NCBI GenBank assembly: GCA_964019425.1
Contig: OZ025787.1
Span: 1,364,001-1,428,000, forward strand
Reading direction: 5' to 3'
DNA: 64,000 nucleotides
Origin: Flectonema sp. DT1601
Taxonomy: Eukaryota
The translations under genes were made by a program, and so were the position numbers. Below are positions 441 to 61,577 of the stretch, piece by piece. Numbering within the stretch: position 1 is the stretch's first letter; the number at the start of each line of letters is the position of its first letter. A model generated the notes under the pieces. It was not told the DNA's origin. It was given only the letters and a program-made list of their open reading frames with translations, and did no database searches.

Positions 441-3400
441 ATGAATATCAGGGTCCCCGTTGTACTTCTATCGCTCTTGTCTTCGGTGTGTGGACAGATA
501 TTGCCAGTAAGGACCATCGTTGCTATAGGGGGATTGGCCTTTAACCCCGTTGGTAATTTCGAGGAACCCTGCGATCCGCCTAATTATGTAAATGTAACCG
601 ATGAAATATGTGTAAGTGGATACCCAACAGCAGCACATTATTTTGAAGCCTTGGCCAAACCAACAGATGTCGCAGGGGTTGTTCGAGTCATGGGTACCGA
701 TGAACTCTCAAAAATAACATTATACCATCCTCGTCACTGGGAATTGAACTTAGACGTTTGGAAAAGATTAGATATTGATTTCGGGGTGCTGAGATCTCCC
801 GGAATGTTCACACAACCTGTTTACTACGATGACGCTTTGAGGTTTTTAAATAACAAACACCTACCGGTGGTGGCATCGAACATAGACTTACAACCTTATT
901 ATTATGTTTTTGATTTGGTTGATAAAATATTCATCAAAGACGTTGGAGGTACGAAATTCGGTTATATAGCAATATGGGGAGACCTGTTGTACATAAAAAC
1001 ATACACATACGACTTAGTACTACCCAGCATCGCAGAAAGACTCCGTTCACTAGGTGCGGAAGTAGTTATATTACTCTGTATCGGACAAGCAAAATATTTC
1101 ACAACCCCAACAACATTAGTGAGATTCAATATAGATGCGGTGTTATTGCCTGCTGAGTATACTGATGTTACAACACCAGTCGTATCAAATGGAACGACTT
1201 TGTTAGTTGGAACCTTAGAAAGAGGTGCTTCACATGCTTTACAATACATTGATGCAGTGAAAGCATTTGATTCCCTACTTGGTCGTATGACGTGGAGGTT
1301 TACTTCAACAAATATTAATATGGCAACACCTCTTACTCCTGCTCAGAAAGAACCATTAATTCAAAAAGGAGAATATGATTGGATTCAAACACAACGTGAT
1401 CTGTCACTCGCAAATGATCCTGTCGTTGGTCAGTGTACTCATGATCTACAAGCTGTTAACGATGAAAGTGAAGTTTATTGTCGTTACCAAGAATGTGTTG
1501 GAGGTAACATGGTTGCTGATGCTTGCGCTAGGAGACTTCCAACAGTTGATGTTTGTTTTCCAAATGCAGGAGCACTTCGTCGTGGATGGGATGCAGGCCC
1601 AGTTCACGCCTCTGATGTCACGACGTATGTACAATTTTCTTATTATATCAAACAGATTAGTTAATCATCACCATATTAAAATAAATAAAACAGATTCTTC
1701 CCATACGCAAACACACTCTGCGAACTTAACACAACTGGTGCAGGAATTTGGGAGATATTAGAAGTAGCTGTCGCAAACATTGGAACTGATGGTAATCTCA
1801 ACTCGTCAAACAGAATCTCAGGAGGCTATCTGCAAGTATCTGAAGGATTTAAATATTCTTACAATTGGAGGCTTCCAAGAGGACAACGAATCACATCCAT
1901 CAGTATAAAGGGAAAACCATTAGACCGAAGACGATATTATACCTTGGGTGCGCTTTCTTACTTGTGTTCGGGAGGTGATAGTTTTCCTACACATGTTGCA
2001 GTTCCAAGATCGATAACGTATTTCGAAACAATTAGCGCACACGCAGTCATATCTGAATATCTGAGAACAAATAATCCATACACTCCAAAATTGGAAGAAA
2101 GGATTGTTGTTAACGATTTTGGTGAACCACTTTTGTTAAAGAGACTTCTACCAACTGATTGCAACAGTTCTCAAGTTTTTGTACCGGAGTTCGGATCTTG
2201 TGATGAGTGTCCAGAGGGGTATTTTCATCCGTTGCCTGGATCGGATCCATGTATCCTTGAACCCCTACCACCATCCCCACCTTTAGATAATGCTGTTATT
2301 ATAGTTCCGGCAGTGGTGGTTCCGGTGATGCTCTTGTTAGCGATTTCATTCTGTTTCAAATTACAGAGAGATGGAGCAAAGGCAAAACGAGTTAAGCATG
2401 CTCCAAAAGGAAATGGTGAAATCGCTTTTGTTTTTACTGACATCCAAGCAAGCAGTACCCTTTGGAGTACTGAGCCTACCGCTATGAGTAAAGCATTAGA
2501 AACTCATCACAGGCTCATAAGAGAATTAATCGATCAGTTTGAAGGTTACGAAGTGAAAACAATCGGTGATGCGTTCATGGTAGCATTCTCAAATCCAATA
2601 AATGCCGTTGCGTTTTCTTGTGAAATGCAACTGGAGTTAGCGAATGCTTCATGGCCTGAGAGGATTATGGATTTAGACCCAGCCAAGACTGAACCACACT
2701 ACTCTGGTCTTAGAGTTCGAGTTGGTGTACATTGTGGTCCAGCAAAAGTCAACAGCACTCCTCAAGGTGGATTTGACTACGATGGCGGAACTGTGAACGC
2801 ATCTGCCCGAATTGGTGATTGCGGTTGTGGAGGACAAGTATTGATATCCGATACGGTTTATGATTTAATAGAACCTCATATCGATGTCTTAAATCACAAT
2901 GTCGACGTAAAGTATCTCGGTGAGTACCACCTCCGTGGTATTGCCGAACCTATGGGAATTCTTCAAATAATGCCCGAACCGTTGAACCTCAGAGCATTTG
3001 GTAACTTACGCGGGGTCACACCCATTTCGGAAGAAGAAGCAGTAGAAACACCAGCAGACGTATGTGTTGTACCACCTGATACTGGAACAGTACTTTCTGA
3101 AAAGTCAGAAGCATTAGGTTATACTAAACGAGATAGAATTGTTGCTCTTCAAACAATTAGAAAATATGCTCTCTCATTTGGACCGAGAGGAATGCCGTTT
3201 CCGACTGCGACATCGTTGCTGTGCCACTGCTTAGAAACGAGATCTCTTAAGGATTCTAAGTTGATTTCAATTTTACTTCTTCACGCCCAAGACGGTGCAC
3301 GACCACCGCCATTATCAAATGTACCTGGAAGAGGTAATGAATACGTTGTACATATTGCTAGTCCTTCACCACCGGGAGGACAAAAGCGACCTCAATTATC

Positions 3401-3773
3401 AAAAGGGATATCAAACAATAGAATGAGTACTAGTTTTAGAAGCCCTAAAGGTTTAGTTGATTCAGGACTTGACTTTGCTTCTCCTGAAACTCATCAGACA
3501 GATTCACCAACTGACCTTACCTTGTATTTGAGATGGGCAGTCTTTGTTGAAGTTTTACATCAGCTTCCAACTGCTTGCATATGTCAGTTGGCTAATAAAA
3601 TAAGAGAAGAGAATGGAAATATCTCTCCTGGCGTTTCAATGGATCACGATCCGTCACCCATTTCTCCGACCTCTGGGATAGTCGCACTGCTACCTTCACA
3701 TGAATTAACAAGTGGAGGGTTTGCTGTACCTCCACATCCACCACCAAATCCTCCAAAAAAATTATCTGCTTAA
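441..3773 (+). CDS. Receptor-type adenylate cyclase with a 5'-nucleotidase-like ectodomain; join(441..1624,1694..3773), ~1087 aa
   Basis: Signal peptide. Metallophosphoesterase-like segments LPVVASNID, KDVGGTKFGYIAI, LRSLGAEVVILL. 5'-nucleotidase C-domain motifs CRYQECVGGNMVADA, NAGALR, FFPYANTL (restored by removing GTATGT..AAACAG intron 1625-1693), GGYLQVSEG, GGDSF. Cys-rich CDECPEGYF, one TM helix, and class III cyclase motifs FTDIQASSTLW, YEVKTIGDAFM, DYDGGTVNASAR. Confidence 0.88.
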
Positions 3774-8721: not shown

Positions 8722-10708
8722 ATGGCACGTCACTTAAAAAGAGTTGACAAAGGCCGATCGTTGGCTGCTAGACTTAGCAATACGTTGAACACAAATTTAT
8801 CTGATTTGGGACTAAATTCAGATGAGGATGATGATGACTCCGACTGTGTGAATCCAGCGTTAAATTACATGCCTGCTAAAAAGAAGAAGAAGAAAAGTGC
8901 GACAAGTTCTCCAACGAACCCACCACCGACGGAAGACTCTCTAGAGGCAGAACCAACAGATACATATAAAGTGAAGAAAAAGAAGAAGAAAAAAAATAAA
9001 AATACGCTGAAAAAACGAGCATCGCCAACCAATACTTATGATGTGCCATCAGACACAGAAGACTGTGAAAGCAGCAAACAAGAAGAAGAAGAAGAAGACG
9101 TAGATAAAATTGTAAGAGATTATAAAGAAAAACAAACAAACAACACTATAAGCAATCCCACCACTTCATCAGTATCCGCTGTAGAATCAGTGCAGGATGA
9201 CTTGTCCAGTTTGTTTAAAACCTCTGCTGCTGCGCTTGACGCAGACGCAGAATTGAGGAAGCTATTCGGTAATGATACAGGTGTTGCAAACACTTCTCGG
9301 AATACGAGAAATAAAAAAAGCTTGTTAGTGACGCCAGATGACACCTGGCCACCAATCTCTGCTATTTCTGGATTCAAAATACATTCTTTTATAAGAAAGT
9401 CAGACATCACTGAATACTACATCAAAGATTCTGGTGACGTATTAAAAATATCAAAGTCAGTCCGATCAGCCTTAGCTAGTGATGACTCGAATCGATTATT
9501 TAATATATTTCAAGAAAACTATTGGCATCTAAGAGCAGGTTACCAAGCAGCTGTAATGATGGCACTCACTGATAGGTCTGATCAAGCAACAGACATATTC
9601 AGACGTCTTAGTCATGCCATAGCAATTCATTTCAGGGGTACTCTAAGTCTCCTAGATCCGTTCACTATTAGAGTGATGCCATACAGAGAGGGTGAGAGTG
9701 ATGTTATTTTCTTAATACTTCAGCAACTTATGCATGCTCATGTTAGAACTGGTTGTCTTGGAGCGGCATTCGAACTATCAAAGGTTTGTTGATATTGTTA
9801 TCAAAAAAAAAGGGATGATTTCATTTAAAACAACAACACAGGTAATCTTTAACCTTGACGGAGACATAGATCCCGTTGGTATGATCTACAACATAGAGTA
9901 CCTGGCAATTCGATCACAACATACCAGTTGGCTTCTAAACGCTGCGAACTGTTTTCGAAAAGATGGTCACACCATAGCACTACTCCCAATATGCAGTTTT
10001 GGAATGGGATTATGTGGGGGAATAGATCGTCTAAATCACGTCATTAGAGGGGTTCGAACTTGGCCAGAATTAGCAAACCTTTTAGTGAAGGCTGACGACT
10101 ACGGAATACGATCAGTTCAACTAGATCACGATATTATATACCCAGCTGAGGGATCGTCATCCGATGTAATTATTAAAGTTTACGTTTCAAGAATGAATGA
10201 TATTTGGGGGCAATATGCAAACCAACAACTTCTACTACAAGCGATTAAGTCCGTCAATGAGGATGTTAAAACTGAAGAACTCGTAGAAAACATCAATGAA
10301 CGTATAACACTACTAGGATCCCATCATTGTTTTTTAAAACCGAACGCCGTAATTGGAGTTGTGGATGAAATTATGGCTGGAGTTCGTAGTGAAGCAGATC
10401 GTCGTCGACTTCAATCGATGTGGACACCTGAAATGAATCTGCTGCCAGATCCTGTTCGTGAATCTCTTTTGGATACTCTCACAGGATCAGACTTTTCTTT
10501 ATTGAGAACTATGAATCCCGTATTGCTGTTTCTGTCTTTGCTCTGTCCTTGGAATTCAGTTCCTCGTTATTTAATGAAAACACTTCTGAAGAGATGGCGT
10601 GAAGACAATCACACAGAAGCCAGAGAATGGGACAGAGAAATTGAACTCCACAGACGGATTGGTCAAATCCAACGAGATCGACAACAACAATTAGATGCTG
10701 GACAATAA
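8722..10708 (+). CDS. TCF25: TCF25/Rqc1 ribosome quality control protein homolog; join(8722..9783,9842..10708), ~642 aa
   Basis: Lys/acidic low-complexity N-terminus and LLVTPDDTWPP. The spliced junction gives GCLGAAFELSK|VIFNLDGDIDPVGMIYNIEYLAIRS, matching the TCF25 GC..TA.E..K.ILSL.P..DP......ID..A.R pattern. Intron 9784-9841 is GTTTGT..ACACAG. Confidence 0.82.
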
Positions 10709-18696: not shown

Positions 18697-20210
18697 ATGA
18701 GTTACCTCTCATGGTCAACATTCTTTATTCTAATAGGAAGTGTTGCGTGTGTTGATCCACTATTTGTCGGATGTTTTGGCGATACTAGCGCAGCGCCAGA
18801 CATGCCGACTGACACGAAACTGATGTCCAGAGAAATGACTATCGAACTCTGTGTGGGTCATTGCAAAGGAAAGATGTTTCGTTATGTTGCTTTACAAGAA
18901 GGAACGACTTGTTTCTGTGGTAACAGTTACGGATCTCACGGAGAAAGTAAGGGAGGATGCGTAAAAGAGTGCACTGGAGGTTCAACTCCCTTTGGAAGAT
19001 GCGGAGGAGACTTTGCCAACTCCGTATATGACACAACAAAAGTACAAGAAGAAGCAAACAGTTCTAATTATGAACTCACTTATGTTGGATGCTTCAAAGA
19101 CAAGTCTCCGGGACGTCAATTCCCAACAGAGTTCCAATTCGACGATGATTTAATGACCGTTCAGATGTGTGTTCAGCACTGTACTAAACAACAACATATA
19201 TTTAACTATGTTGCCTTACAAGATGGTAATCAATGCTTTTGTGGCAATGAACCTGGAGACAAACTTGGCAGGGCAGACGGTAGCTGCACGAAGAACTGTG
19301 CTGGCACACAAGTAGAAAAGGTTTCTGGACCAGCAGGAAAGTGTGGAGGTGGATTTGCTAATCAAGTTTACGGATTGAGATTGTTAGTACCATCAACAGA
19401 AGCTCCTAAAGGAACGATAGTTGTCGCACCGATTAAGATAATACCAAATTGTGGAATTCCAATGTCTGTTCTCATATCATCATTCGCAATATTAGTTACC
19501 TCGTTGGGGAGTATGGGATTCTTCTGTGTCACTGTCTTGTCTGCTACATATCCTTATGCTGTTACTTCTATCTTTATTGGTTCCTTGACGGCAGAGATAT
19601 TTCTGGTTGTGATTAGTTGTCTTGTTGGTCATATCCTTCCAGATTCTTCTTTCTTATCGATTCGTAATAATAAAATATTGAATGCGATTGTGTTGGTTGC
19701 ATACGGCTTTTTACAGGTCCACAAGTCATTCTGTGTAGCCGCGAAAGATCAAGATGATCGTAGGGAAGACTTCCGCTTTGCAATAGCTGAAGTAGGAAGA
19801 CCGACTCAGAAAGATGATGGAAGCGGGATATTATCAGAGCAAGTTCAAGACTCTCCCTCGTCAATTTTTATGGCGTTCAAGGCTATCCTACTAACAGAAT
19901 GGGGATCGATAAACCAACTTGCTATAATTATTCTTTCGATTGTTATTGACATACGATCTGTTGTTTATGCTGGGTTACTTTCTCAAGTATGTTGATTACT
20001 TATATATTCCCTGCTCTACTTCTCTAACTAACATACTAAATAATAAACCAAAAATAGTTTTATATGGTGTCCTTGGCGGTAGTCATTCCACCCCAATCGA
20101 TGATCGGAAAAAACAGCTTTGCGTTGAAGACTTATTTTGCAGGAGGTGTGTTTTCGTTCTCTTTTTTCTTCTTCCAGTTGTTCAACAATTATTGTTGTTG
20201 GTATCATTAA
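18697..20210 (+). CDS. WSC-WSC domains fused to a GDT1/TMEM165 (UPF0016)-like membrane domain; join(18697..19986,20058..20210), ~480 aa
   Basis: Signal peptide; two WSC repeats (F/YVGCF.D...MT...C..HC....YVALQ.G..CFCGN...CGG.FAN.VY). Two UPF0016-like halves (TSLGSMGFF; AFKAILLTEWGSINQLAII). Intron 19987-20057 (GTATGT..AAATAG) restores the final helices SLAVVI...FAGGVFSFSFFFF. Confidence 0.8.
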
Positions 20211-27072: not shown

Positions 27073-30000
27073 ATGGGTGATAAACCCATAATGCGGCAGG
27101 TGAAACGAAGTAATTCGCAGGTGAGTTTAGGACTTGGTTCACCCCTGTCGCCGACGATATCCGCTTCCAGTAGTCCTGGGGGAACGAGACGAGTCAGACT
27201 GCAGGATTTTGGTTTACCCGGATCCCCAACAGTCACATCCCCCGTTCGACTCCGACGAGGACGCAGCAATTCGACGCCTAATTTAAATAACTGGAAATCA
27301 AATCATTGGCAACTCTTATCTAATATTATATTCGCTACTTCACATCTTAAAAAACGTGTCGGAAACGTAAGAAAACATACCAACAGACAACACTTTTATA
27401 AATATATTGATGACGTGTCTACTTGTTCAAAATGCTCTAAGAAACACATCGCAGACACGGACTGGTATCGTTGTAATATATGTCTTCATACTCATGTTGA
27501 TCTGTGTAGGCAATGCTTCAGAAATTGGAATCATCCTCAGCATTGGTTTTCTGAAATGAGTCAAGCATCGTATACTATGTTTCACAAAAGAATTAAACGA
27601 AGGTGGTACATACTACGTCTCGGTATGAGATCTGAAGCAATTCGACCACTTATCGATCGGTTTCACAGTAAGATAATCGCTCACCTGATTCAGCTACTCA
27701 CCCCGTCGGCAGACGAGCCTTCAGGTGTTTTGAAAAATACGATAAATTGGTGTCTGGCGATACCACATTTAAAAAAACTTCTAACTGGAAATAAACAAAC
27801 ATCATTAGCAGCTTTTTATTGGAAAGGTGGGAAAGCTGGATTTGCACGTCCTCTTACTCCGGAAGCAAAGCAAAAACTGGTTGACTATTTAAGAGAACAA
27901 GACAACAGTGGAAGGGAACGTATTACTATTAGTGATGCATCATCAAATGTTGACTTAGCTGACGGCTCGATTAAAATTGTTTATGAAGATAATCCTGTTG
28001 AGTTTATAGTAGCGGGAGGGGCATCCAATTCAAAGCTGTTTTGTAAATTTCCAAAAAGAGATCCGTTTAGGGTGACGAAAGTTCTTTTAACTGATGTGAG
28101 TAAACCAAACTCTGTTGTTATTCTTGGACCTCCTAAGATGAGTTTAAAATTACCATGGGGACTTACAGAACAAGATCAAAGACAAACTCTTTCTATTCTG
28201 ACCACACTGCGATCGATTACAAAAGTATTCGACATCGTTTGTACCATCCCTGAAAGTCTCCTACTTTGTAGAAATAAAGATAATCTCAAAGAGAATGGAT
28301 CGATATCAAGAAAGAAAGGATTACATCACGTCATAAATAGAAACATCCTTGAGGGATACAGTAAAACCGCTCAACAGATTACAGCAATGCCTGGGTCTGT
28401 AAGACAAAGCAACGTACAACAAAAAGAAATGTGGAATTCAAGTAGTAAAATCGACGACCGTCACCATCGTGGATTGCTAGGCGGTAATACCCCTGCACAT
28501 CTTGAGTTAATTCACTTAAAAGGTATTCATTCACTTTGGGAAGACACCACACCAGCAGTTATTCACATTCTACGTACAATGATGAATGGTCTTGTTGATG
28601 CATTGAAGATTGTTACTAATCAGAAACAGGTTAGAACAGCAAATAGTAGTTTCAATGTCTTTGAAGGATTGGTTCCCGACAACTGTCACGAATCTTTAAT
28701 ATGTAAGGAAGTTGTTGATATTGTAAGGAATTACAATACGAATGGAAAGGGAATGTTGAAAATTACTTCTGACTCTTCAACTGAAACGAAAACTCAATCA
28801 GGTCAATGGGACAGTTTACAAGGTTGGGAAGCATGTCATCACACTAGTAGGTTACGTTCTGGTCGAGTCTGTTTTGAAAATAGCGACATGACTTGCTCTG
28901 CGACTACTCGTCATGATACTGTCGCTCTGGGAAAACAAATTATAACAACTTCGTCAATTTCAACTGTCGTGACTTATAAAATTATCGAATCGTCTGAAGA
29001 CATGTTTCTCGGAATCACACCAACCTCATCTGGGCCAACTGTTTTCGATTCAAAAACCTTCCCGATAATTAAAAAAAAGGATACCCCCAATACTTTCAGT
29101 GGTATTTTTTATAAGGGTGCTGGAGTTGTGTGTCTGCCTGGTGTCTCTAGCGAGGCGGTAGCTGAGAACTTAGTATCCTCGACACCTGTTGTGAATTGTG
29201 GTGATGTTCTAAAGTTTAGGGTAAAGCCCAGCCTTCGTAATGGATTCATAAAAATAACACTAAATGGACAGCTGATCTTTCACAGAAAAGGTATTTCATT
29301 TCCGAAGTGCGGATTAACGCCTTACGTTTTATTTAGAAGCAGTCCCAGATGCAGAGTTCAGATATCAAAAATTGAAGCTCCGAATGAAAGTCGAAAGAAA
29401 CTTGTCTCTGACCCTCTCAGTACTACACCTCCGGCTGTGTTGAGGATGTTGCGTGTTATGGAAAGTACTTTTTTTAATCACTTTGATAGATCATTAAGAA
29501 GACCTCCACCACGTGATCAAGTCACTTTAGTATTTACTGATGTTCAGTCATCAACTGTACTATGGGACAAGTCACCTGACGGCATGAAAATAGCTCTCGC
29601 TCTTCATAATTCTGTTCTTCGCAGACTTATTGAAAAGTGGAGAGGTTATGAAGTTAAAACAGAAGGTGACGCATTCATGATTGCGTTCCAAAGAACAGAA
29701 CACGCATTGAATTGGTGTCTTGACTCTCAGAGAGAATTATTAAAAATTAATTGGCCAGAAGAGGTTCTAACACTACCAGCAGCATCTGTTGTTAACGCTG
29801 TCGACGGAACTCCAATCTTTAGAGGACTACGAGTGAGAATGGGATTCCATACAGGAGAACCAGAATGTGAACAAGATCCTGTAACAGGTAGAATGGATTA
29901 CTTCGGTCCAATGGTTAACCTCGCTGCTCGTATCTCTGGTGTCGGTCAAGGGGGTGAAACTGTTATTGGAGGAGCTGCCTTTCGACATCTCCACCGTAAT

Positions 30001-32583
30001 GGTTCCCTCCCAGACTCAGCTGTTCATTTATACTGTCATGGATCAATATCACTGAAGGGAATCACTAGGAATGAGAATTTATTTTCTCTCCTTCCTATGG
30101 AACTTAAGGAACGGGTTGACTACTGGGAAAAGAAAGATAAAACTGTGCAAACTGTCTTTGAAACAAATACAAAGAAAGTACAAGACGTTATACAGCAAGC
30201 TGTGCGTGATCGACAGAAGACACCAACAGCAGCAGGTACTGCAACAACAACAACAACTACAAAATACAAATCTGATCAAGACGTGAGCACACCAGAAGTA
30301 CCTGGGCTAACTCCACTAACAAGTGATACTAGCTTGTCTAGCAGCGACACAGCTACTGAATGCAAAAAAACCAACTGGGTCAGAACTGTCTGGAGACAAG
30401 CTGTAAAAATGCAACTAGAAAGAGAAAAAGACCACGACAGTCAAAAAAACTCAATAACAGACACAAGAGAAGTTAAAATACAAACAGAACCACTCCTGCA
30501 CTCACATGTAGATATCGGATCAAATAGAATGCAAGAATCCATTGAATGCCTCTTAATGTCAATGCATGAAGGACAACACGTCACTCTGTGTGATTTTAAC
30601 AGTGATGCAAGTCGACTCAATGGATGTGAAGGTGTTGTTGCAGGTTATGATACGAATATGGTTTTTGTTGAAACAACGAAGTTTGGTCAAGTTTCTATTC
30701 ATAAAGATAATCTTATAAAGAGTTCAGTGAAGACTCCTGTGGCTGAAGCTCAAACTCAAACTCGAATATTGAGATCAACGAGAGTTAGTTTAATGGAATC
30801 TGAAAGAGGTGATCATTATGATCAAAGAGTCTCAACAAGATCACGAGGAGGTAGTATGGGCTCAACAACATCAGAAATCAGTTATCACAGAAAGAAGAGT
30901 CGATCACCACGTGAAGATAATATGAGACCCGTTCAAAAACTCTTATCCAATTCAACTCCTAAGACTCCTCGTTCTCCAATAAACTTAAGATCTCCACTCA
31001 GTCCTGTGAAGGAAGTCAGCATCGTCTCATTCAATATCGATGAGCCTTCAGCTGATAGCTCCAAGGGAACTCACTCACAACAAATCGCAGAACTGGAATC
31101 TCACATTACCACACTCAAAGGAAATATTAAAAAATTAGAAGAAGAAATTCAATCACCGACAAAGAACTCTGCGGACAACAGTTACATAAAACAACTTGAG
31201 GAGGAAATTAAATCGATGAAAGAAAGATATAAAACAACAACAACCGGAAGTGGTAGGGTCGCAGTATTGGAAAAAAAACTATCCACGACAAACGATAAGC
31301 TTCAAGAGGCTGACAAGCACTCTATCCTTTTAAAAAAAAGCATCTCTGATTTGCAAAATAAACTTAGCAAAAACCAGGAAAAAGACTCCAGTATCAATGC
31401 AGAAAATAAGAATTTAAAGGAAAAAATTGCAGAACAAGATGAAAGTATGAGATCATTAAAAAAGAATGCATCGATGACTCTTCGTCGGCTTGAAGCGGAG
31501 GAACTGTGTACGGAGCTTCGAAAAAAGAATTCCAGCTTACAAGAATTAATCACTAAACAAGAGAAGGAAATAATCTCTTTACAACATGTTATAAAGCAAT
31601 TAAAAGAATCAAATTCAACAACAGTCACCATCGACGATAAGTCCAACACCAACTACACTGAAATACTTGAAGGGCGAGCAAGAGAATTCGACTCAAAGGA
31701 GGCTTCGTATAAGTTACTTATCACTTCATTGAGGAACGCTGAAACCAATTATGAAAAATTAATTTCATCGTTGCGAAAGCAGCTCGTGGATTCCAATAAT
31801 AAGCTTTCAGCTGTCGAGGCGTTACCGCAATCGCCAGTTAAAAATGCCACGCCGCCGCAATCTCCAAATAAAAGTACCGCGTCGCCGCAATCACCAATTA
31901 AGAGTACTACTGTATGTCGGAAATGTGAAGCCGTTGAGATTACTTTGCAACGCGTGGCAGATGTTTCAAAAAGAGAAACCGAGTTAGCTGTTGCTCAGAA
32001 AAAGTTTGAGGAACTCCGACATGTGATTACGACCGTTGGTAGTGATTTCGAAGGTTCAGAAATAGGAAGTCCGCTGTCATTGTGTAGTGTTGAATCTGTA
32101 GACGCTTCATTGAGAGCAAAGTTAAAAATTGCCTCCACATCAACATGTCAAAATTGTTTAGGAGTTGCCGCAGGGTTCGCTAGATTAGAACAAGTATATC
32201 AGCAACGGAGTAGATCAGAATCTCCTTCGCATTGGCAATCTGGTGAGTTGGGGCAGTCTCCATTCAAATTTCCTGAAGCTGAGTCGCTAACGAGATCACT
32301 AACAAGTCCACAACCCATATGCTCAACTCTTGATAAGAAACCACTCGGATCGCAATCTTCTGATCATGCTTTTAGAATGGCAGCTGGTGGCAAAGTTCTT
32401 CGCCGAACTTCTGGAAAGCCTGTCACAGCACCCATTCTTGGAACTAACCTGACGATGAGTATTAGTGATTCACTATCTTCTGGATCATTGGCTTCCCCAT
32501 CCGGCTTCATTGCAGCTCCGTCATTCTCAGCTGTTCGTATGCAACCAGTAAGACAACGAAAGAGACGTACAACATTGTCTTAA
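27073..32583 (+). CDS. Soluble multidomain adenylate cyclase: ZZ-type zinc finger, SPRY-like domain, class III cyclase, coiled coil
   Basis: CSKC....WYRCNIC....DLCRQCF...H..H (ZZ); SPRY-like DMFLGIT..GDVLKFRV..ITLNG..LTPYV; cyclase FTDVQSSTVLW, YEVKTEGDAFM, GLRVRMGFHTG, DYFGPMVNLAAR. No TM helix once the start is set at ATG 27073. Confidence 0.88.
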   Translation: MGDKPIMRQVKRSNSQVSLGLGSPLSPTISASSSPGGTRRVRLQDFGLPGSPTVTSPVRLRRGRSNSTPNLNNWKSNHWQLLSNIIFATSHLKKRVGNVRKHTNRQHFYKYIDDVSTCSKCSKKHIADTDWYRCNICLHTHVDLCRQCFRNWNHPQHWFSEMSQASYTMFHKRIKRRWYILRLGMRSEAIRPLIDRFHSKIIAHLIQLLTPSADEPSGVLKNTINWCLAIPHLKKLLTGNKQTSLAAFYWKGGKAGFARPLTPEAKQKLVDYLREQDNSGRERITISDASSNVDLADGSIKIVYEDNPVEFIVAGGASNSKLFCKFPKRDPFRVTKVLLTDVSKPNSVVILGPPKMSLKLPWGLTEQDQRQTLSILTTLRSITKVFDIVCTIPESLLLCRNKDNLKENGSISRKKGLHHVINRNILEGYSKTAQQITAMPGSVRQSNVQQKEMWNSSSKIDDRHHRGLLGGNTPAHLELIHLKGIHSLWEDTTPAVIHILRTMMNGLVDALKIVTNQKQVRTANSSFNVFEGLVPDNCHESLICKEVVDIVRNYNTNGKGMLKITSDSSTETKTQSGQWDSLQGWEACHHTSRLRSGRVCFENSDMTCSATTRHDTVALGKQIITTSSISTVVTYKIIESSEDMFLGITPTSSGPTVFDSKTFPIIKKKDTPNTFSGIFYKGAGVVCLPGVSSEAVAENLVSSTPVVNCGDVLKFRVKPSLRNGFIKITLNGQLIFHRKGISFPKCGLTPYVLFRSSPRCRVQISKIEAPNESRKKLVSDPLSTTPPAVLRMLRVMESTFFNHFDRSLRRPPPRDQVTLVFTDVQSSTVLWDKSPDGMKIALALHNSVLRRLIEKWRGYEVKTEGDAFMIAFQRTEHALNWCLDSQRELLKINWPEEVLTLPAASVVNAVDGTPIFRGLRVRMGFHTGEPECEQDPVTGRMDYFGPMVNLAARISGVGQGGETVIGGAAFRHLHRNGSLPDSAVHLYCHGSISLKGITRNENLFSLLPMELKERVDYWEKKDKTVQTVFETNTKKVQDVIQQAVRDRQKTPTAAGTATTTTTTKYKSDQDVSTPEVPGLTPLTSDTSLSSSDTATECKKTNWVRTVWRQAVKMQLEREKDHDSQKNSITDTREVKIQTEPLLHSHVDIGSNRMQESIECLLMSMHEGQHVTLCDFNSDASRLNGCEGVVAGYDTNMVFVETTKFGQVSIHKDNLIKSSVKTPVAEAQTQTRILRSTRVSLMESERGDHYDQRVSTRSRGGSMGSTTSEISYHRKKSRSPREDNMRPVQKLLSNSTPKTPRSPINLRSPLSPVKEVSIVSFNIDEPSADSSKGTHSQQIAELESHITTLKGNIKKLEEEIQSPTKNSADNSYIKQLEEEIKSMKERYKTTTTGSGRVAVLEKKLSTTNDKLQEADKHSILLKKSISDLQNKLSKNQEKDSSINAENKNLKEKIAEQDESMRSLKKNASMTLRRLEAEELCTELRKKNSSLQELITKQEKEIISLQHVIKQLKESNSTTVTIDDKSNTNYTEILEGRAREFDSKEASYKLLITSLRNAETNYEKLISSLRKQLVDSNNKLSAVEALPQSPVKNATPPQSPNKSTASPQSPIKSTTVCRKCEAVEITLQRVADVSKRETELAVAQKKFEELRHVITTVGSDFEGSEIGSPLSLCSVESVDASLRAKLKIASTSTCQNCLGVAAGFARLEQVYQQRSRSESPSHWQSGELGQSPFKFPEAESLTRSLTSPQPICSTLDKKPLGSQSSDHAFRMAAGGKVLRRTSGKPVTAPILGTNLTMSISDSLSSGSLASPSGFIAAPSFSAVRMQPVRQRKRRTTLS

Positions 32584-37125: not shown

Positions 37126-38085
37126 ATGACGTCTCTCAGCATGTTACTAGCTGCGGCGGTGGGTGTTATGTTTCCTCCAACAAACCCATCAGCTTGGACA
37201 AGAGCAGCAAACAATCCAGTACTGAGTCCGACAGAACCATGGGAAGGAAATTGCGTCTGTGAAAATGTTGCAATGCGTGACGAAGGAAAATGGAAAATGT
37301 GGTACCGAGGAGGATGGGGTACTCAATGTGTTGGATTAGCCTTTTCTGATGATGGGCTTCATTGGGAAAAAGCCAACAATGGTAAACCGGTATACGGATG
37401 TGGTAGTTCAGGCTCGAATAGCACAGTCAGTGGAGGCCAACCATGGGTATTCAGAGTAAATTCAACAACGCTATTCCTTTACAGTACTGTCACTGAGAAG
37501 GATGTTAAAAAAGTAAACCTCATGCACTCAACTGACGGAATCAACTGGATTCCACTTTCTTCATCCATTCCGATCCCACCCAATGGATTCCTTTGGGGAA
37601 ATCGTGTTGTCTGGAGAGAAGATGGCGACAATTGGAAGATGCTTCAGGAAGCGACCACTCATAAGTCAGGTATTTGGGAAATATTTCTTTATACTTCGAA
37701 TGATGGTCAGCATTGGTCTGTACAAAACAACGGAAACCCACTTACTTCACTCAGCCGTGGAGGTATGTACGGAGGACCTCGAGTAGCCAACATCGAAGGA
37801 AAAGTGACACCTTTTTATAACGGTTCGTATCATATATTCTTTCATGCATCTAAGAATGGTGATTTACCAACTGACATTTACCACGCTACTTCATTAGATT
37901 TAATTAACTGGGACGTCACTCCATCAACACCTGTTATAACTCATCTTGGTACGGGATATGAATACGATCAAGTAGCTGGTCCTGTTCCCTTGATCGTAAA
38001 CGGTACTGCTTATATTTTTTACGACGGTGACAACAACGCTCATCCAGGTGCTAGAATTGGAGTGGTCACCAGCCACGGTAATTAG
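37126..38085 (+). CDS. Secreted five-bladed beta-propeller glycoside hydrolase-like protein (GH32/43/130-type fold)
   Basis: N-terminal hydrophobic signal; NNPVLSP..PWE, KWKMWYRG, and four S.D(G/L)..W blade motifs (SDDGLHW, STDGINW, SNDGQHW, SLDLINW). No intron. Confidence 0.78.
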   Translation: MTSLSMLLAAAVGVMFPPTNPSAWTRAANNPVLSPTEPWEGNCVCENVAMRDEGKWKMWYRGGWGTQCVGLAFSDDGLHWEKANNGKPVYGCGSSGSNSTVSGGQPWVFRVNSTTLFLYSTVTEKDVKKVNLMHSTDGINWIPLSSSIPIPPNGFLWGNRVVWREDGDNWKMLQEATTHKSGIWEIFLYTSNDGQHWSVQNNGNPLTSLSRGGMYGGPRVANIEGKVTPFYNGSYHIFFHASKNGDLPTDIYHATSLDLINWDVTPSTPVITHLGTGYEYDQVAGPVPLIVNGTAYIFYDGDNNAHPGARIGVVTSHGN

Positions 38086-46278: not shown

Positions 46279-47823
46279 ATGAAAGTATCACAAGTGTTGA
46301 TTATATGCTCGTTGTTATTTGTTTGTGAAGGTAATGAATTTTGTTGTCAAGGACAGCATGTGAAACCTGGTATTCTAAAGGCAACACGCGAGCCATGGTG
46401 GAAATATCACGGAACTGAAGCAAGGTGTGGTGATAAAACACAACCATGTGATGTTAACGTTTGTAACGAATGTTGGAGTGGATTGGTACCTGACTTACAT
46501 CGAACTTTATCAGAACAGACGGGATACTCATACGAACTTGTTGGGGCACCACCTGGAACTACCACAGAACAGTTACTTAACTTATTAAGAGATGGAACTA
46601 TTACTATGTTACCTCATGAGTTAGGGTTGTCATCATTCTCTTCTGATATGCAGGACAATTTTAGTTTTACGCAACCGTTTGTAACTTACACGTACTCAGC
46701 TCTTGTAAAAAGTGAAAGAACTACTGCAGACATGTGGTCTTTGTTTAAACCATTTACTCTAGGACTGTGGTTAATAATCTTAGGTGTTGTTGGCTTGTTC
46801 TCTCTGACTTTCTGGGGACTTGAAGGAAACACAAACACTCCTGTGGGTGGTGCTGCTAGAGGTGTTGAATTCGTGTTCGCTTCACTACTCGGTGGGATGG
46901 AATACGACGGTGTCAGAAGGGATGGTCGTCTTGGAAGGTTTCTCAGAATAGGATTATTGTTTTTTGTATTAATCATCACTGCTACATACACTGCAAACCT
47001 TGCCTCTATATTAACAACTAAGAATTTAATATTACACGGACCTAGAAATATGGAACAGCTAAAAACTGCAACTGTCTGTAATTTTGACAACCCTCTCGTA
47101 AGAACTGACATCCAAACACACACAGAATACGTTATGACACCAGATGGAAATTCACGTCAATGGGAAGCTACAGAACTAGGTCGAAGAGACTGCATTAACA
47201 AGCTCCTTGACGGAACAGTTGGTGCTGTAATTGCCAATGTCTTGGAGTTAAAACAAATGCAAAAAGACTTTGGTGTCTGTGACCAAGTAAAGCATATTCC
47301 TTTAATTGCTTTCAATCCCCGATATGTTACTTTTATGACTACTAAAAATAACTCAGCCTTCGCTCAGAATTTGACGGAAACGATTGTTAAACTTCAGACA
47401 AACAAACTTTTAATGAATATGATGAATGAGAATTACGAAAGCGCCTGTACTACAGAACCAGCTAAGAAAAACTACCAGTTGGATATAGAAAATCTGGGTG
47501 GTTTGTTCTGTATTACAGGAGCGTGGGTAGTCATCACGATACTTTGCAAGCTAGCTACTGTTGCTGGAATAGGAAGGGGAATCATTCCAGATGCGAATAA
47601 TAACATACATGAAAATCAAACAGATGAGATTATGCAAAAACTAAATTCAATTCTTGAGGAAGTATCTTCGTCTCACAGAGCGAGACCACTTCTCAATGAG
47701 GCGGAATCTTACAGCAGCTCTGCTAGTCAAAAACCGTTCTTTGAGTCTACGACGAGTTATTATGTGGCCCCTCTTAGTAGAGTACCGTCTAGAAAGGTAC
47801 ATCCCGGCACAGTTCAGGCATAG
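46279..47823 (+). CDS. Ionotropic glutamate receptor-like ligand-gated channel lacking the amino-terminal domain
   Basis: Signal peptide; S1 ending FSFTQPF; pre-M1 MWSLFKPFTLGLW; re-entrant loop; M3 gate ATYTANLASILT; S2; M4 LDIENLGGLF. Confidence 0.88.
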   Translation: MKVSQVLIICSLLFVCEGNEFCCQGQHVKPGILKATREPWWKYHGTEARCGDKTQPCDVNVCNECWSGLVPDLHRTLSEQTGYSYELVGAPPGTTTEQLLNLLRDGTITMLPHELGLSSFSSDMQDNFSFTQPFVTYTYSALVKSERTTADMWSLFKPFTLGLWLIILGVVGLFSLTFWGLEGNTNTPVGGAARGVEFVFASLLGGMEYDGVRRDGRLGRFLRIGLLFFVLIITATYTANLASILTTKNLILHGPRNMEQLKTATVCNFDNPLVRTDIQTHTEYVMTPDGNSRQWEATELGRRDCINKLLDGTVGAVIANVLELKQMQKDFGVCDQVKHIPLIAFNPRYVTFMTTKNNSAFAQNLTETIVKLQTNKLLMNMMNENYESACTTEPAKKNYQLDIENLGGLFCITGAWVVITILCKLATVAGIGRGIIPDANNNIHENQTDEIMQKLNSILEEVSSSHRARPLLNEAESYSSSASQKPFFESTTSYYVAPLSRVPSRKVHPGTVQA

Positions 47824-54983: not shown

Positions 54984-57071
54984 ATGGAGCCAACACCAAA
55001 ACAATTACGAAAACGTCCAAAATGGAAGGAAGATGTCAGTGCACCACAGTGTGACGAGGTTGGATGTAGTGTTAAATTTGGTGTCTTAAAAAGAAGACAT
55101 CACTGCAGAGGATGTGGTTACGTTTATTGTGCTGAACACTGCAAGGCTACGCTTGCTATTCCTTTTATGGGATACTACTCGGAAGTTAAAGTTTGTCATA
55201 GTTGTGTAACTCATGGGGTTGAAGATCCTGACAACATCCCTCCTGAAGCACCGAGGAAGGAGAAGAAGGAAAAGAAAAAGAAAGATAAGAAGAGTAAAAA
55301 AGAAAAAAAAGAGAAGAGAAAATCGAAGAAAGCTGCCGCAGAAGAAGTGAGTGAGGAAGCTAATTCAGAGGCAACGGTAAGTCCGAGTGGGGGTCCACCT
55401 CCGGTGCCACCACCACCTGGACCTGGAGCGCCAAGTGGAGGTCCACCTCCTGTTCCTGGGTATGGCGCGCCACCTCCGATTCCTGGACAAGGACCTCCTG
55501 TTGTTGCTGGAGGTCCGCCTCCTATTCCTCCGCCTATTACACCTCCTCCTGTTGGTAGTAGTAATCCTAATCCAGACGTCTTTCATCTCCAACGTCGTAT
55601 TGATGACCTGGAAAACAAACTTCAACAACAACAGCAGCAACTAGCTGGTAAACGAGTTCGTTTCAACGATCCCGACGGCGATCAAATTGAAATATTCAAA
55701 TCCCCATCACACGGAGAACTTCAATATTCAGTCAATGGAGAGAACAGACCTCCATTCTCACGTATGCAGTTTCATGCGGAGGGACCTGCGTTGGAGCTCA
55801 CTGACATCGATAAAGTAATTGTTCTACCAACTGACTGTTATAAGCACATAAGAGATTTAATAGAAATAGCTGCTGAAGTGAACGTTGATATCCCAATGGC
55901 AATGATGAGCTCTTTCTGTACTAGCTGTAAAGGATTGAAATGCAATACACCATTCTGTTGTGTCACAGGAAAGTCACACGGTGATGACAGCTCTCCAGAA
56001 CGTACTCAAAGAGCAGTGGCTGTACCTGCATCTCTTTCAGGAACAGTTCTTCCTCAGTTGGCAGAACTAGAGAAGGCATCAGTTAATATTGGTCCTCCGT
56101 TAGATAATAAACCAGTCTTTGCTGATGGATGGTCAAGTTCTGATGATGATGACAGTGACTGGGAATCACCCTCAAAGGGTCGTGGTGCTATTGTTGCTGC
56201 TCAGCCTCCTGTAGCAACAAATGTTCCATTACCAATTGAAGATGTGCCGTCAAGACCTATTTTACCTTATCAAATACCTCCATCTGATGTAGGAATGCAA
56301 GCACTTCCTGCTGCTCCAACTGTTCCTGTTGAGTCGAATTGTGTGGCGAGTGTTCCTCTCACTCCTCCACCTGATCCGATAGTGGGTAGTTTCAACTCAG
56401 CTGTTCTTAGTATTGATGCGTCCACTACTCCCACTTCTGCACCTGCAAAACCTCCTCCAGGTATAAAGGGAGCAAAAATGGATCCCATGGCTGCAGCAGC
56501 AGCTGGCGCCCGCAACCGCCTTCGCAAGACTTCTGTAGTTAAAAAGTCTGAACCTGCAGTGGTAGAAGAACCAGTTGCTGCCGGACAACATTTGCTGCGG
56601 TCATCGCAGGCACAGATTCCAACCAGTAAGAAATCGCCATCCGTATCACCCGTGAATGAGTCGCTCACAGCACCGCCGGGTCAGCATCTTCTCAAATGTT
56701 CATTTTCGGAATCCTCTTCTGCAGTGAAGAGTTTACCTGAAGATCCTGTTGGTCAACACCTCTTACGATCTATTGACTCCAGTCCTGTAAAGTCTCCTTC
56801 GCAGGAACCGCTTCCACCTGGTCGTCACATGCTGAAGTCATCCTTTGCAGAAAACGAGGAGTCAAAGCCTGAACAACAACAACAACAACATCAACAGCAG
56901 CAACAACAACAACAAGCACATGAGGATCCGGAACCGGCACCAGCAGCGAACACAAAGACGGAAGAGAAAGCTCCTCCAACTGCTAGTAAAGGACCGACAG
57001 GAATGATGAAAAAGAAACTGCTCGCCCGTAGAGCTGCTTCTGAATCCGATGAATCTGAAGACGACTGGTAG
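54984..57071 (+). CDS. FYVE-domain, proline-rich protein with a WH2-like motif and C-terminal central/acidic-Trp segment (putative Arp2/3 activator)
   Basis: WKED, RRHHCRGCG and KVCHSC (FYVE); Lys-rich segment; GGPPPV/IP repeats; MAAAAAGARNRLRKT; C-terminus MMKKKLLARRAASESDESEDDW. Confidence 0.85.
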   Translation: MEPTPKQLRKRPKWKEDVSAPQCDEVGCSVKFGVLKRRHHCRGCGYVYCAEHCKATLAIPFMGYYSEVKVCHSCVTHGVEDPDNIPPEAPRKEKKEKKKKDKKSKKEKKEKRKSKKAAAEEVSEEANSEATVSPSGGPPPVPPPPGPGAPSGGPPPVPGYGAPPPIPGQGPPVVAGGPPPIPPPITPPPVGSSNPNPDVFHLQRRIDDLENKLQQQQQQLAGKRVRFNDPDGDQIEIFKSPSHGELQYSVNGENRPPFSRMQFHAEGPALELTDIDKVIVLPTDCYKHIRDLIEIAAEVNVDIPMAMMSSFCTSCKGLKCNTPFCCVTGKSHGDDSSPERTQRAVAVPASLSGTVLPQLAELEKASVNIGPPLDNKPVFADGWSSSDDDDSDWESPSKGRGAIVAAQPPVATNVPLPIEDVPSRPILPYQIPPSDVGMQALPAAPTVPVESNCVASVPLTPPPDPIVGSFNSAVLSIDASTTPTSAPAKPPPGIKGAKMDPMAAAAAGARNRLRKTSVVKKSEPAVVEEPVAAGQHLLRSSQAQIPTSKKSPSVSPVNESLTAPPGQHLLKCSFSESSSAVKSLPEDPVGQHLLRSIDSSPVKSPSQEPLPPGRHMLKSSFAENEESKPEQQQQQHQQQQQQQQAHEDPEPAPAANTKTEEKAPPTASKGPTGMMKKKLLARRAASESDESEDDW

Positions 57072-59408: not shown

Positions 59409-61577
59409 ATGAGATCCCTTCCTTGGGTGCTGCTTGCAGCGACCCTCTGCAGTGCTGACAACACGATTTGCCCGAACTGGGAAACAGACCCTGCCAGTTG
59501 CCTTAAGAAGTACAACGTAGTTTGGAATGACCTGCTTCCTGAACCTAGGGATACTTTCATAAATACAATGCCATTGGGTAATGGAAGACTAACAGCGAAT
59601 GTGTACTCTAATGGAGAAGACTCTGTTAGTTTATTATTTGCAGCAAGTGATGCATGGAATGAAGGATCTGATTTGATAAAAGTTGGGACTGTTACCGTTC
59701 AGTTCGAACCACAACCACCAAAGGGTCACTTCAAGCAGTACATTGACTTAGCCACGGCAACTGTGTTCGTGGAGATGGGAGACTTGCAAGTGTCGATGTA
59801 CATTGATGCGAACAGTAACACTACTGTTGTGGATTACAACAACACGAAGTACACTGCCAAGGCAACTGCCTCGTTGGCTCGTCCTCAAGCTCAGTCTGTC
59901 CAGGGTCAGTTTGAGTGTCAGGCATACAACATCAGTGCTGACGGTAGTGCTGAAAATGGAGCAGCTTTCTACCATCGGAATCAGGGATTCCCTGAACAAG
60001 ATTACTTCAAGAACATGGTCGAAGAACAAAACCTCGGCCCCAAAGCCTACGCATCGATGCCTAACTTGTTAGTAAACAGAACTACTGGTGGGTACATTAC
60101 TACTTCTGGTTCAATGACTCTCATTACGATATTAACAAAACAAACTAACACTGTAGAGGATTGGGTCTCTGCTGTCAAAGCTGAAGTCGTCACTCCGAAT
60201 CAAGAAGGTCACGTGAAGTGGTGGAATTCGTTTTGGCAGCGTTCGTACATTGAGGTTTCTGACTTTAACGTAACATCGAAGTACGTATTGCAGAGATTCC
60301 TGCAAGCATGCCAGGCCAGGTCTCCATTTCCTATGAAATTTAATGGAATGTTGTTCACGGCGACACGTGATTTGGACAAGCGCAATTGGGGTGGTCGCAA
60401 CTGGTGGCAGAACCTCCGTCTTCCGTACTACAACATGTTGTCAACTGGTGACACTGACATGTTGTTCACTCTGTTGGATAGTTTTCATAAAACACTTCCT
60501 CTTGCTAAGGCAAGAACTGAACATTATTTCAACATCACTGGTGCGTACTGGCCGGAATACACTGATGCTCTATTTGGTACTACACACGCTCAGTCATACG
60601 GGTGTGGACGTGCTGGAAAGACTGACCCACCCTACTGGTACAACTCTGATCGTTGGAACCACTACAACGTTCAGGGAAGTTTGGATCTTTCCTTATTTGC
60701 GATTGATTACCTCACTCACACTGGTAAGTCTGGAGAGTACATGGACATCGTTGTTAATGTCTTGGAGTTCTTCGCTCAGTGGAGACCTGCTAGAGATGCT
60801 CAGGGTAAGATGATACTCTTCCCGACCCAATCATGTGAAACTTGGCAATGTCCTGGATATCCTCCAAACCCAGACAATTGTCCAACTAATGACATGCCTA
60901 CAATAGCTGGACTCTACTCTGTTGTGAACAATGTCTTGCTTACTTCATTCGGAACCCCACAGCAGAGGGCTTCTTGGAAGCAATTGTTGGATATTATCCC
61001 TCCACTTCCAGTAAACAGCACGAACTTGTTGCCATGTGAGAAGTGTCCTCATAGAACCAGCAATGTAGAGAACACTGAATTGTATGCTGTTCATCCTTAC
61101 AGATTGTTTACAGCAGGAAGGATGAAGCCGAGTGAGATGACGTTGGCATTCAACGCGATGGACGATCGCAGATTCCGTTCTGATGTTGGATGGAACCAAA
61201 ATGCCATGGACGCCGCACTCTTAGGACGTGCTAAGGATGCTCAGTCGATGGTAGTCGCACGTGCGAGTTACGGTCCAGGTCCTGGTTATCGCTTTCCGGG
61301 TTTCATGCAGAAGTTTCAGGACTACTCTCCTAGTTTAGATCATTTATCTGTTCACAACAATGCTGTGGTGTACATGTTATTACAACAAGATGATTCAATT
61401 ACACACAATGTAACTATTCTTCCTGCATGGCCATGTGACTGGGATGTAACTTTTAAACTCCACGCACCTCTACAGACGATAATCACTGGATCTGTGACTA
61501 ATGGAAAGGTTCAATACAAAGTTTCTCCTGACTCTAGGGCTCCATTTGTACACGCTGCTCCTTGTCAGCAGAAGTAA
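59409..61577 (+). CDS. Secreted glycoside hydrolase-like protein (GH95-like / DUF5703, alpha/alpha barrel), copy 1
   Basis: Signal peptide; TMPLGNG, H.KWWNSFWQRSYI, KFNGMLF, WGG.NWWQNLRLPY, SNVENTELYAVHPYR, GWNQ and MLLQ...ILPAWPCDWDV.FKLHAP resemble bacterial GH95/DUF5703 proteins. Confidence 0.8.
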   Translation: MRSLPWVLLAATLCSADNTICPNWETDPASCLKKYNVVWNDLLPEPRDTFINTMPLGNGRLTANVYSNGEDSVSLLFAASDAWNEGSDLIKVGTVTVQFEPQPPKGHFKQYIDLATATVFVEMGDLQVSMYIDANSNTTVVDYNNTKYTAKATASLARPQAQSVQGQFECQAYNISADGSAENGAAFYHRNQGFPEQDYFKNMVEEQNLGPKAYASMPNLLVNRTTGGYITTSGSMTLITILTKQTNTVEDWVSAVKAEVVTPNQEGHVKWWNSFWQRSYIEVSDFNVTSKYVLQRFLQACQARSPFPMKFNGMLFTATRDLDKRNWGGRNWWQNLRLPYYNMLSTGDTDMLFTLLDSFHKTLPLAKARTEHYFNITGAYWPEYTDALFGTTHAQSYGCGRAGKTDPPYWYNSDRWNHYNVQGSLDLSLFAIDYLTHTGKSGEYMDIVVNVLEFFAQWRPARDAQGKMILFPTQSCETWQCPGYPPNPDNCPTNDMPTIAGLYSVVNNVLLTSFGTPQQRASWKQLLDIIPPLPVNSTNLLPCEKCPHRTSNVENTELYAVHPYRLFTAGRMKPSEMTLAFNAMDDRRFRSDVGWNQNAMDAALLGRAKDAQSMVVARASYGPGPGYRFPGFMQKFQDYSPSLDHLSVHNNAVVYMLLQQDDSITHNVTILPAWPCDWDVTFKLHAPLQTIITGSVTNGKVQYKVSPDSRAPFVHAAPCQQK

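Follow-up and report, generated by a model that had tools for sequence, protein, structure and literature searches.

A candidate regulator of actin and the Arp2/3 complex, apparently tethered to membranes through lipid binding, is encoded in a stretch of 64,000 nucleotides from Flectonema sp. DT1601, which is likely to be a diplonemid (assembly GCA_964019425.1, contig OZ025787.1, positions 1,364,001 to 1,428,000), which is referred to below as the window. The gene is a single open reading frame (ORF) at 54984..57071 on the forward strand, with no internal stop, and it specifies a protein of 695 amino acids. An initial annotation, made from the sequence alone, had proposed a FYVE-anchored, WASP-like nucleation-promoting factor (NPF) of a possible new class, and the ORF and every motif named there were found where it had placed them. 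The reading tentatively favoured here, at somewhat below even probability, is that of a lipid-anchored regulator of actin and Arp2/3 that would work like an NPF. On the evidence of its sequence, the protein is not a demonstrable member of the WASP family.

The reading is supported by comparison of three full-length diplonemid proteins, in which short motifs have been conserved, in order, within disordered sequence that is otherwise approximately 25% identical. The order common to all three is a basic stretch, a proline-rich region (poly-Pro), a predicted coiled coil, a probable PH-like domain, an internal double-Trp motif, an Ala-rich segment with L[RK][KS][TAS], repeats of the form G-x-H-[LM]-L-[KR], an RR pair and a terminal DDW. 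The poly-Pro, WH2-like, central-like and acidic elements match the order given for class I NPFs (poly-Pro, WH2, central, acidic) in a passage of PMC9569871. The initial annotation had overlooked the coiled coil, the PH-like domain with its Cys/His knuckle, the internal acidic motif with two Trp residues and, in the supposed spacer, four G[QR]H[LM]L[KR] repeats. Coordinates of all of the features are presented in Table 1.

Table 1. Features of the 695-amino-acid Flectonema protein, with positions in the window
Feature	Residues	Positions	Strand	Basis
Whole ORF	1-695	54984..57071	+	695 amino acids; 42% identity to D. papillatum KAJ9472539.1, architecture identical
FYVE zinc finger, predicted anchor to phosphatidylinositol 3-phosphate (PI3P)	13-76	55020..55211	+	Pfam PF01363, E=2e-14; WxxD, RRHHCR, 8 Cys
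Lys-rich basic stretch	90-117	55251..55334	+	19 K/R in 28 amino acids
First proline-rich region	136-191	55389..55556	+	GPPP[VI]P repeats
Predicted coiled-coil helix	197-219	55572..55640	+	Helix in model; aligned in 4 members
Compact domain, probably PH-like	223-300	55650..55883	+	AlphaFold2 predicted local distance difference test score (pLDDT) 91
CxxC...C..H knuckle	311-332	55914..55979	+	Shared by both D. papillatum proteins, missing from Namystynia
Internal double-Trp acidic/Ser motif, W-[SD]-S...W...GRG	381-401	56124..56186	+	Pattern in 3/3 full-length members
Second proline-rich, disordered region	407-493	56202..56462	+	Low conservation, 25-27% identity
Degenerate WH2-like motif: Ala-rich segment and LRKT (residue 513)	499-516	56478..56531	+	Aligned in 3/3
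Four G[QR]H[LM]L[KR] repeats	534, 566, 590, 613	56583..56837	+	Resemble the tail half of WH2
Partial central-like segment, M675...L679-L-A-R-R		57003..57032	+	2/3 hydrophobic positions
Acidic/Ser tail ending DDW, W695 last, then stop		57036..57071	+	3/3 full-length members

Identification of the family

A word-index search returned 4 matches among 7,985 scored candidates, namely the query, KAJ9472539.1 from Diplonema papillatum and two proteins matched through FYVE only. When a profile was run against 1.84 billion representatives, 3,013 matches were obtained at E≤0.001, and the best 150, down to 54 bits, were screened; this added three members (P0005, P0007 and P0008). The full-length family thus comprises the Flectonema protein, KAJ9472539.1 (a FYVE form) and P0008 from Namystynia karyoxenos, a PH form of 771 amino acids. 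P0007 is a fragment of 103 amino acids from Rhynchopus humris. P0005 is a paralogue from D. papillatum (KAJ9472540.1, 400 amino acids), with an accession number adjoining that of KAJ9472539.1 and a contig equal to it in length. It retains the FYVE domain, coil, PH-like domain and knuckle, and lacks the poly-Pro, the WH2-like motif and the tail. Its FYVE domain is degenerate (RRFHCK rather than RRHHCR). The FYVE His and the whole tail have both been lost, a joint loss that speaks for the favoured reading; P0005 is possibly a heterodimerising regulator. Among the matches listed, the named close relatives are all diplonemid, and the others were found through FYVE, the middle domain or low-complexity sequence (P0040). 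The family appears, from the best 150 of the 3,013 matches, to be small and found only in diplonemids.

No new members came from word-index searches in which the queries were the middle region and a body-plus-tail profile; KAJ9472539.1 (P0002) was missed as well, which marks these searches as insensitive, and they do not show the family to be absent elsewhere. A metagenome scan yielded 14 loci; all matched through FYVE only, at 31-55% identity, and the frame that encodes the FYVE lacked the family tail. The NCBI label of KAJ9472539.1, 'Vps27', is unsupported because Pfam finds only FYVE, and no VHS, UIM or GAT, in both that protein and the one from Flectonema.

The predicted N-terminal membrane module

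The FYVE domain proposed in the initial annotation is well founded. Its Pfam score is 53.9 bits against a cut-off of 27.8, all eight zinc ligands are present, and the WxxD and R[RK]HHCR signatures occur as WKED at residue 14 and RRHHCR at residue 37. The third signature motif of FYVE domains is RVC. In the Flectonema protein and in D. papillatum it reads KVC, a conservative change, and in the R. humris fragment it is RVC. The domain is 71% identical to that of KAJ9472539.1. A protein from the euglenid Peranema trichophorum (P0006), also met in this study, has five near-identical FYVE fingers in tandem.

In the Namystynia member, a PH domain (Pfam, E=4.5e-10) takes the place of FYVE, and the body and tail are shared. 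The occurrence of two unrelated lipid-binding folds in the same N-terminal slot is as expected for a membrane anchor, and this swapping of anchors is the strongest novel feature of the family. The Lys-rich stretch that follows, likewise confirmed, is present in the four longer members and begins in the R. humris fragment; it is likely to be a second, electrostatic membrane contact.

The C-terminal WH2-like, central-like and acidic elements

Patterns for WH2 and the central domain were taken from the relevant passages of Kollmar 2012 (PMC3298513). The motif background consisted of the 147 other proteins from the profile search and 22 other ORFs of the window, and each tail was shuffled 20,000 times. 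An acidic-Trp end was found in all three full-length members, compared with none of the 147 proteins and none of the 22 ORFs; among shuffles of each tail, the rate was 1-2 per 10,000. The terminus reads as given in the initial annotation, and the final Trp and the RR pair are conserved in the three full-length members.

The word that ends the WH2-like motif is LRKT, LRKA or, in Namystynia, LKSS; it is kept in the same order in all three, as the NPF proposal anticipated, and in two of them it has the strict form L[KR][KR][VTA]. LRKT-type words are common in the background (2-9% of shuffles, 21/147 proteins and 3/22 window ORFs). The first of the G-x-H-[LM]-L-[KR] repeats begins 17-19 amino acids downstream of this motif in all three members. 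There are four copies in the Flectonema protein, two in D. papillatum and one in Namystynia, and none in the 147 other proteins; the repeats are possible extra actin contacts.

The core of the Kollmar central pattern is present in the Namystynia tail as V...L...I and then KRR, and it arose in 0.3% of shuffles of that tail. The closing hydrophobic residue is missing from all three members, and none of them has the full pattern (hydrophobics at i, i+4 and i+8, two to three R/K and a closing hydrophobic). The unusually long spacer between WH2 and central segments, put at about 155 amino acids in the initial annotation, was borne out: 157 amino acids separate the end of LRKT from M674, and 166 separate it from RR. 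Linkers within the WH2, central and acidic (VCA) region are described as variable, especially in WASH, in passages of Kollmar 2012 that give no lengths (PMC3298513).

The middle region

Runs of poly-Pro lie at residues 138-190 and 461-493 of the Flectonema protein. The GPPP repeats named in the initial annotation are in place, and their Namystynia equivalents read GPPPLP; poly-Pro is absent from P0005. As in the WASP family, a proline-rich region lies ahead of the VCA-like part in all three full-length members. The first is likely to serve in docking of profilin or of SH3/EVH1 domains. The predicted coiled coil may allow dimerisation.

The full-length AlphaFold2 model of the protein was uninformative (pLDDT 41), and the ESM Atlas gave no usable match for the whole protein or for residues 375-695. 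The model of residues 223-300, built from a 12-row alignment, was compared with known structures using VIA. The 50 rows shown are dominated by domains of the PH superfold (FACT/Pob3, the CERT PH domain, FERM lobes and the SPRED EVH1 domain), and a few, such as DUOX1, are doubtful. Z values ranged from 4.4 to 6.1, mostly with a root-mean-square deviation (rmsd) of 2.3-3 over 70-83 residues; the best row (Z 6.1, rmsd 4.0, 83 aligned) lies under the tool's guide value of Z 8. Foldseek found nothing for these residues at E≤0.001 (E>0.2), and Pfam gave no near-threshold match. As the Z values are below the guide of 8, a PH-like fold is likely for this model, without a subfamily name. An assignment to EVH1 was considered and rejected, the SPRED EVH1 row (Z 5.1) being tied with true PH domains.

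This unit of approximately 80 amino acids, with a likely minimal PH-like fold, recurs in nine other proteins (P0009, P0011-P0014, P0027, P0107, P0108 and P0146), mostly in tandem and in up to eight copies per protein. Three of the nine have U-box or RING matches, and no Pfam family covers the unit. The middle domain is a mobile repeat unit.

The knuckle downstream of this domain is likely to bind zinc. The double-Trp motif is 65% identical to that of D. papillatum, as against approximately 25% for its flanks, and alignment reveals a similar two-Trp stretch in P0005. It is possibly a second acidic site of the Arp2/3 type.

Proposed mode of action

If the favoured reading is correct, the FYVE domain and the basic stretch would dock the protein on PI3P-rich membranes of endosomes or food vacuoles, and the poly-Pro would load profilin-actin, by analogy with known families in both cases. 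The coiled coil may dimerise the protein and so raise its avidity. The DDW tail, perhaps together with the internal double-Trp motif, would bind Arp2/3, as the conserved motif suggests. In the most speculative step, actin would be held weakly by the Ala-rich WH2-like motif together with the G-x-H-[LM]-L-[KR] repeats. Branched actin would then form locally on endosomes or food vacuoles. Activation would be non-canonical and of variable strength, nearer to class I in Namystynia and, because the central helix is absent there, nearer to a cortactin-like recruiter in D. papillatum.

A bolder proposal, which we regard as doubtful, is that these proteins are diplonemid-specific, single-chain Arp2/3 activators with an interchangeable phosphoinositide reader (FYVE for PI3P on endosomes, PH for another membrane). 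Their non-canonical VCA would be stretched; it would contain an Ala-rich WH2, additional LKKT-like repeats and a pair of acidic-Trp sites, each serving one of the NPF sites on Arp2/3.

Several results weigh against an NPF-like function. None of the three full-length members matches the Kollmar WH2 consensus, Ala occupying the third large hydrophobic position, and the Pfam WH2 profile is unmatched even at E≤10. Searches of PDB sequences with the WH2-like segment, the tail and a three-sequence profile matched no solved WH2 or central-acidic (CA) peptide and gave chance matches only. The Namystynia WH2-like segment aligns only locally, between hand-chosen ends, and is 5% identical in a global alignment. 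The central helix is absent from D. papillatum, where the sequence is basic and broken by proline, and is partial in the Flectonema protein (M...L, then ARR); its core pattern also occurs in 18/147 unrelated proteins and 2/22 window ORFs. From the WH2-like motif to RR is 166 amino acids in the Flectonema protein and 147-201 across the three members. The FYVE domain is not constant, one member having PH instead. There are only three full-length sequences, and that from Namystynia derives from a transcriptome assembly and could be chimeric. Finally, the family-specific patterns were written after the sequences had been seen, so their low shuffle rates do not count as independent evidence.

The proposal of a PI3P-targeted, single-chain, class I-like NPF thus survives in part. 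The terminal Trp, the RR pair and the LRKT-like word are kept in all three members, and the variable FYVE domain and the failures of the WH2 and central patterns tell against it. For the helix and LRKT described as WH2-like, the position and LRKT hold, and the helix, for which the full-length model (pLDDT 41) gave no support, is putative. For the central helix, RR is kept in all three members and the core is present in Namystynia, compared with two of three positions in the Flectonema protein and none in D. papillatum.

Alternative explanations

An endosomal adaptor unrelated to actin is an unlikely alternative. The FYVE or PH domain would again be the anchor, the Trp-acidic and G-x-H-L-L motifs would bind coat adaptors, motors or kinases, and the likeness to WH2 would be due to chance in Ala/Lys-rich disordered sequence. 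No profile or structure library gave a match to any actin regulator, and both LKKT-type words (21/147) and central-like patterns (18/147) are frequent in the background, as such an adaptor would lead one to expect; Trp-acidic motifs are also ligands of clathrin adaptors and kinesin light chains. It must, however, be assumed in that case that poly-Pro, an LRKT-like word, RR and DDW fell into NPF order by coincidence in all three proteins, and the 'Vps27' label, with Pfam finding FYVE alone, lends the adaptor no help.

Quite unlikely is an Arp2/3-independent nucleator or filament binder on PI3P membranes, resembling Spire, Ena/VASP or RavH/MavH. The WH2-like motif and repeats would then bind actin as a tandem array, gathered into clusters by the coiled coil and the membrane, and the Trp tail would have some other binding partner. 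The Ala-rich helix is similar to the G-actin-binding motif of Ena/VASP, and one WH2-like motif is accompanied by one to four repeats that resemble the tail half of WH2; moreover, FYVE and WH2 are united in Spire, as described in a passage of PMC13481308. The repeats, however, are not preceded by an amphipathic helix and differ in copy number (one to four), and the invariant terminal DDW and the central-like helix of Namystynia would be left unexplained. A non-activating Arp2/3 binder, that is, an endosomal sequesterer or inhibitor that competes with WASH by means of its acidic-Trp motifs, is more improbable still. Arpin and gadkin are models for such a protein. The acidic-Trp elements, two per chain, are indeed the best kept, and the WH2 and central helix, which are needed for activation, are degenerate or absent; on the other hand, a pure inhibitor would not need the poly-Pro, WH2-like motif and repeats, which are kept in all three members.

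Comparison with known actin regulators

In the WASP family and class I NPFs generally, as in the Flectonema protein, an N-terminal targeting module is followed by a basic stretch, poly-Pro and then WH2(-like), central(-like) and acidic-Trp elements. A domain of the PH superfold, the fold class of the WASP WH1/EVH1 domain, is probably present as well. In WAML, fusion of a membrane module (IMD) to VCA defines a protist subfamily. The differences are considerable. The anchor is FYVE or PH, and Pfam finds nothing else above cut-off, including WH1, WHD, WAHD, WMD, GBD or IMD. The central core is present in only one of three members, and none has the WH2 consensus; roughly 150-200 amino acids, with novel repeats, separate WH2 from the central segment. 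There is an extra, internal double-Trp motif, and the PH-like domain is internal. Because the Flectonema protein matches neither the WH2 consensus nor the central pattern, it is not filed in the WASP family.

WASH acts within a multi-subunit complex. WHAMM, like the protein envisaged here, is guided by PI3P, reaching forming autophagosomes and activating Arp2/3 (passages of PMC10330494), but it is animal-specific (PMC3298513), and FYVE is unreported for either WHAMM or WASH in the passages concerned. The statement that none of the standard families has an N-terminal FYVE domain is upheld within these sources: the word FYVE has no occurrences in the main text of Kollmar 2012 (PMC3298513), where no FYVE-bearing WASP-family protein was found, and a literature search by title and abstract opening, which left outside its scope Veltman and Insall 2010 with a possible list of orphan WH2-central-acidic (WCA) proteins, found no FYVE-anchored NPF.

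A single chain of Spire likewise carries a FYVE-type membrane anchor together with several motifs that bind actin, according to passages of PMC9569871 and PMC13481308. It differs in being an Arp2/3-independent nucleator with KIND and four canonical WH2 domains, whereas Pfam finds neither KIND nor WH2 in the Flectonema protein. Spire is not known to have an acidic-Trp tail, and its FYVE domain is C-terminal. In a passage of the RavH paper, that domain is called N-terminal (PMC13481308). The Legionella effectors MavH and RavH similarly join a PI3P-binding domain to WH2-like motifs of a non-canonical kind, through which actin is assembled on endosomes, but these are bacterial proteins with unrelated lipid-binding folds, and no Arp2/3-binding tail is described in the passages concerned (PMC10381072, PMC13481308). 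As WHAMM, Spire and MavH/RavH are precedents for PI3P-targeted, one-chain actin assembly, the designation 'new class' is an overstatement.

With cortactin-type (class II) NPFs, the Flectonema protein shares an acidic DDW and short repeats that might bind filaments. The repeats of cortactin are of 37 amino acids. In the Flectonema protein, the DDW lies at the C terminus, and each repeat is a word of 6-8 amino acids with no Pfam match.

Arp2/3 and actin in diplonemids and their relatives

Neither 'Arp2' nor 'ARPC' occurs in the seven supplementary files of Valach 2023 (PMC10161547), and 'actin-related protein' is used there only for Arp4. File 5 of that study, in which 398 diplonemid and 3,533 D. 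papillatum rows record losses, lists no loss of an Arp2/3 subunit, a result that depends on how the rows are annotated. Profilin is present in diplonemids, as stated in the same source. The literature search found no paper naming papillatum with Arp2, or Euglenozoa and Diplonema with Arp2. Kinetoplastids encode Arp2/3 subunits and WASH with CA/VCA according to passages of PMC3298513 and PMC12472444, WASH being the only WASP-family protein reported for Euglenozoa in the part of Kollmar 2012 concerned (PMC3298513); Arp2/3 activity in Leishmania is described as experimentally unconfirmed (passage of PMC12472444).

A link to RickA of Rickettsiales by way of diplonemid symbionts was considered and set aside, nothing relevant being found in the passages of PMC11077975. 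No locus for an actin stand-in came out of the viral scan. A conventional actin motif was observed in 51 loci of prokaryote assemblies (L015-L065), 16 of them with an actin ORF of 374-392 amino acids. Many of these lie on tiny contigs and are likely to be contamination. Some (L032, L038, L040, L047 and L060) lie on long myxobacterial contigs, a Rickettsiales contig of 12.6 kb or smaller, or a Microcoleus chromosome labelled complete; these loci are 66-91% identical to the animal-like copy L016 and may be real transfers.

Significance

If the bolder proposal above holds, this would be the first FYVE-anchored NPF within the literature searched and the first NPF other than WASH in Euglenozoa. Diplonemids are abundant marine heterotrophs, and actin on their feeding or endocytic membranes is unstudied in the literature found. 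An Arp2/3 activator of this kind would link PI3P directly to branched actin in one chain, and would show that a VCA can function when its WH2 is degenerate and its linker runs to approximately 150 amino acids or more. The family also offers a natural series (full, partial and no central helix) for study of the role of that helix. If the protein is not an activator, it is a lineage-specific endosomal protein, mislabelled as 'Vps27' in its relative, with an unnamed PH-like repeat domain. As D. papillatum proteins can be localised in cells (passage of PMC13615690), testing of the function of the family is practical.

Other genes in the window

Among ORFs of at least 150 amino acids in the window, 24 of 27 lie on one strand, the same arrangement as that described for D. 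papillatum gene clusters in a passage of PMC10161547, which fits a probable diplonemid source. Overlapping ORFs at 8722-9792 and 9734-10708 correspond to successive portions (9-124 and 122-282) of the TCF25 profile, and are a single gene divided by an intron, a frameshift or an assembly error. The ORF at 18697-19995 has two WSC carbohydrate-binding domains followed by a sub-threshold match to the GDT1 cation/proton antiporter, an unusual fusion. GH32 N-terminal and DUF5703_N matches were observed at 37126-38085 and 59409-61577, respectively, in possibly carbohydrate-active proteins. Such genes are reported as horizontally acquired in D. papillatum (passage of PMC10161547), and the two in the window may be of the same kind. 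Proteins with adenylate/guanylate cyclase domains are encoded at 2328-3773 (481 amino acids) and 27073-32583 (1836 amino acids), and a ligand-gated channel-like ORF lies at 46279-47823.

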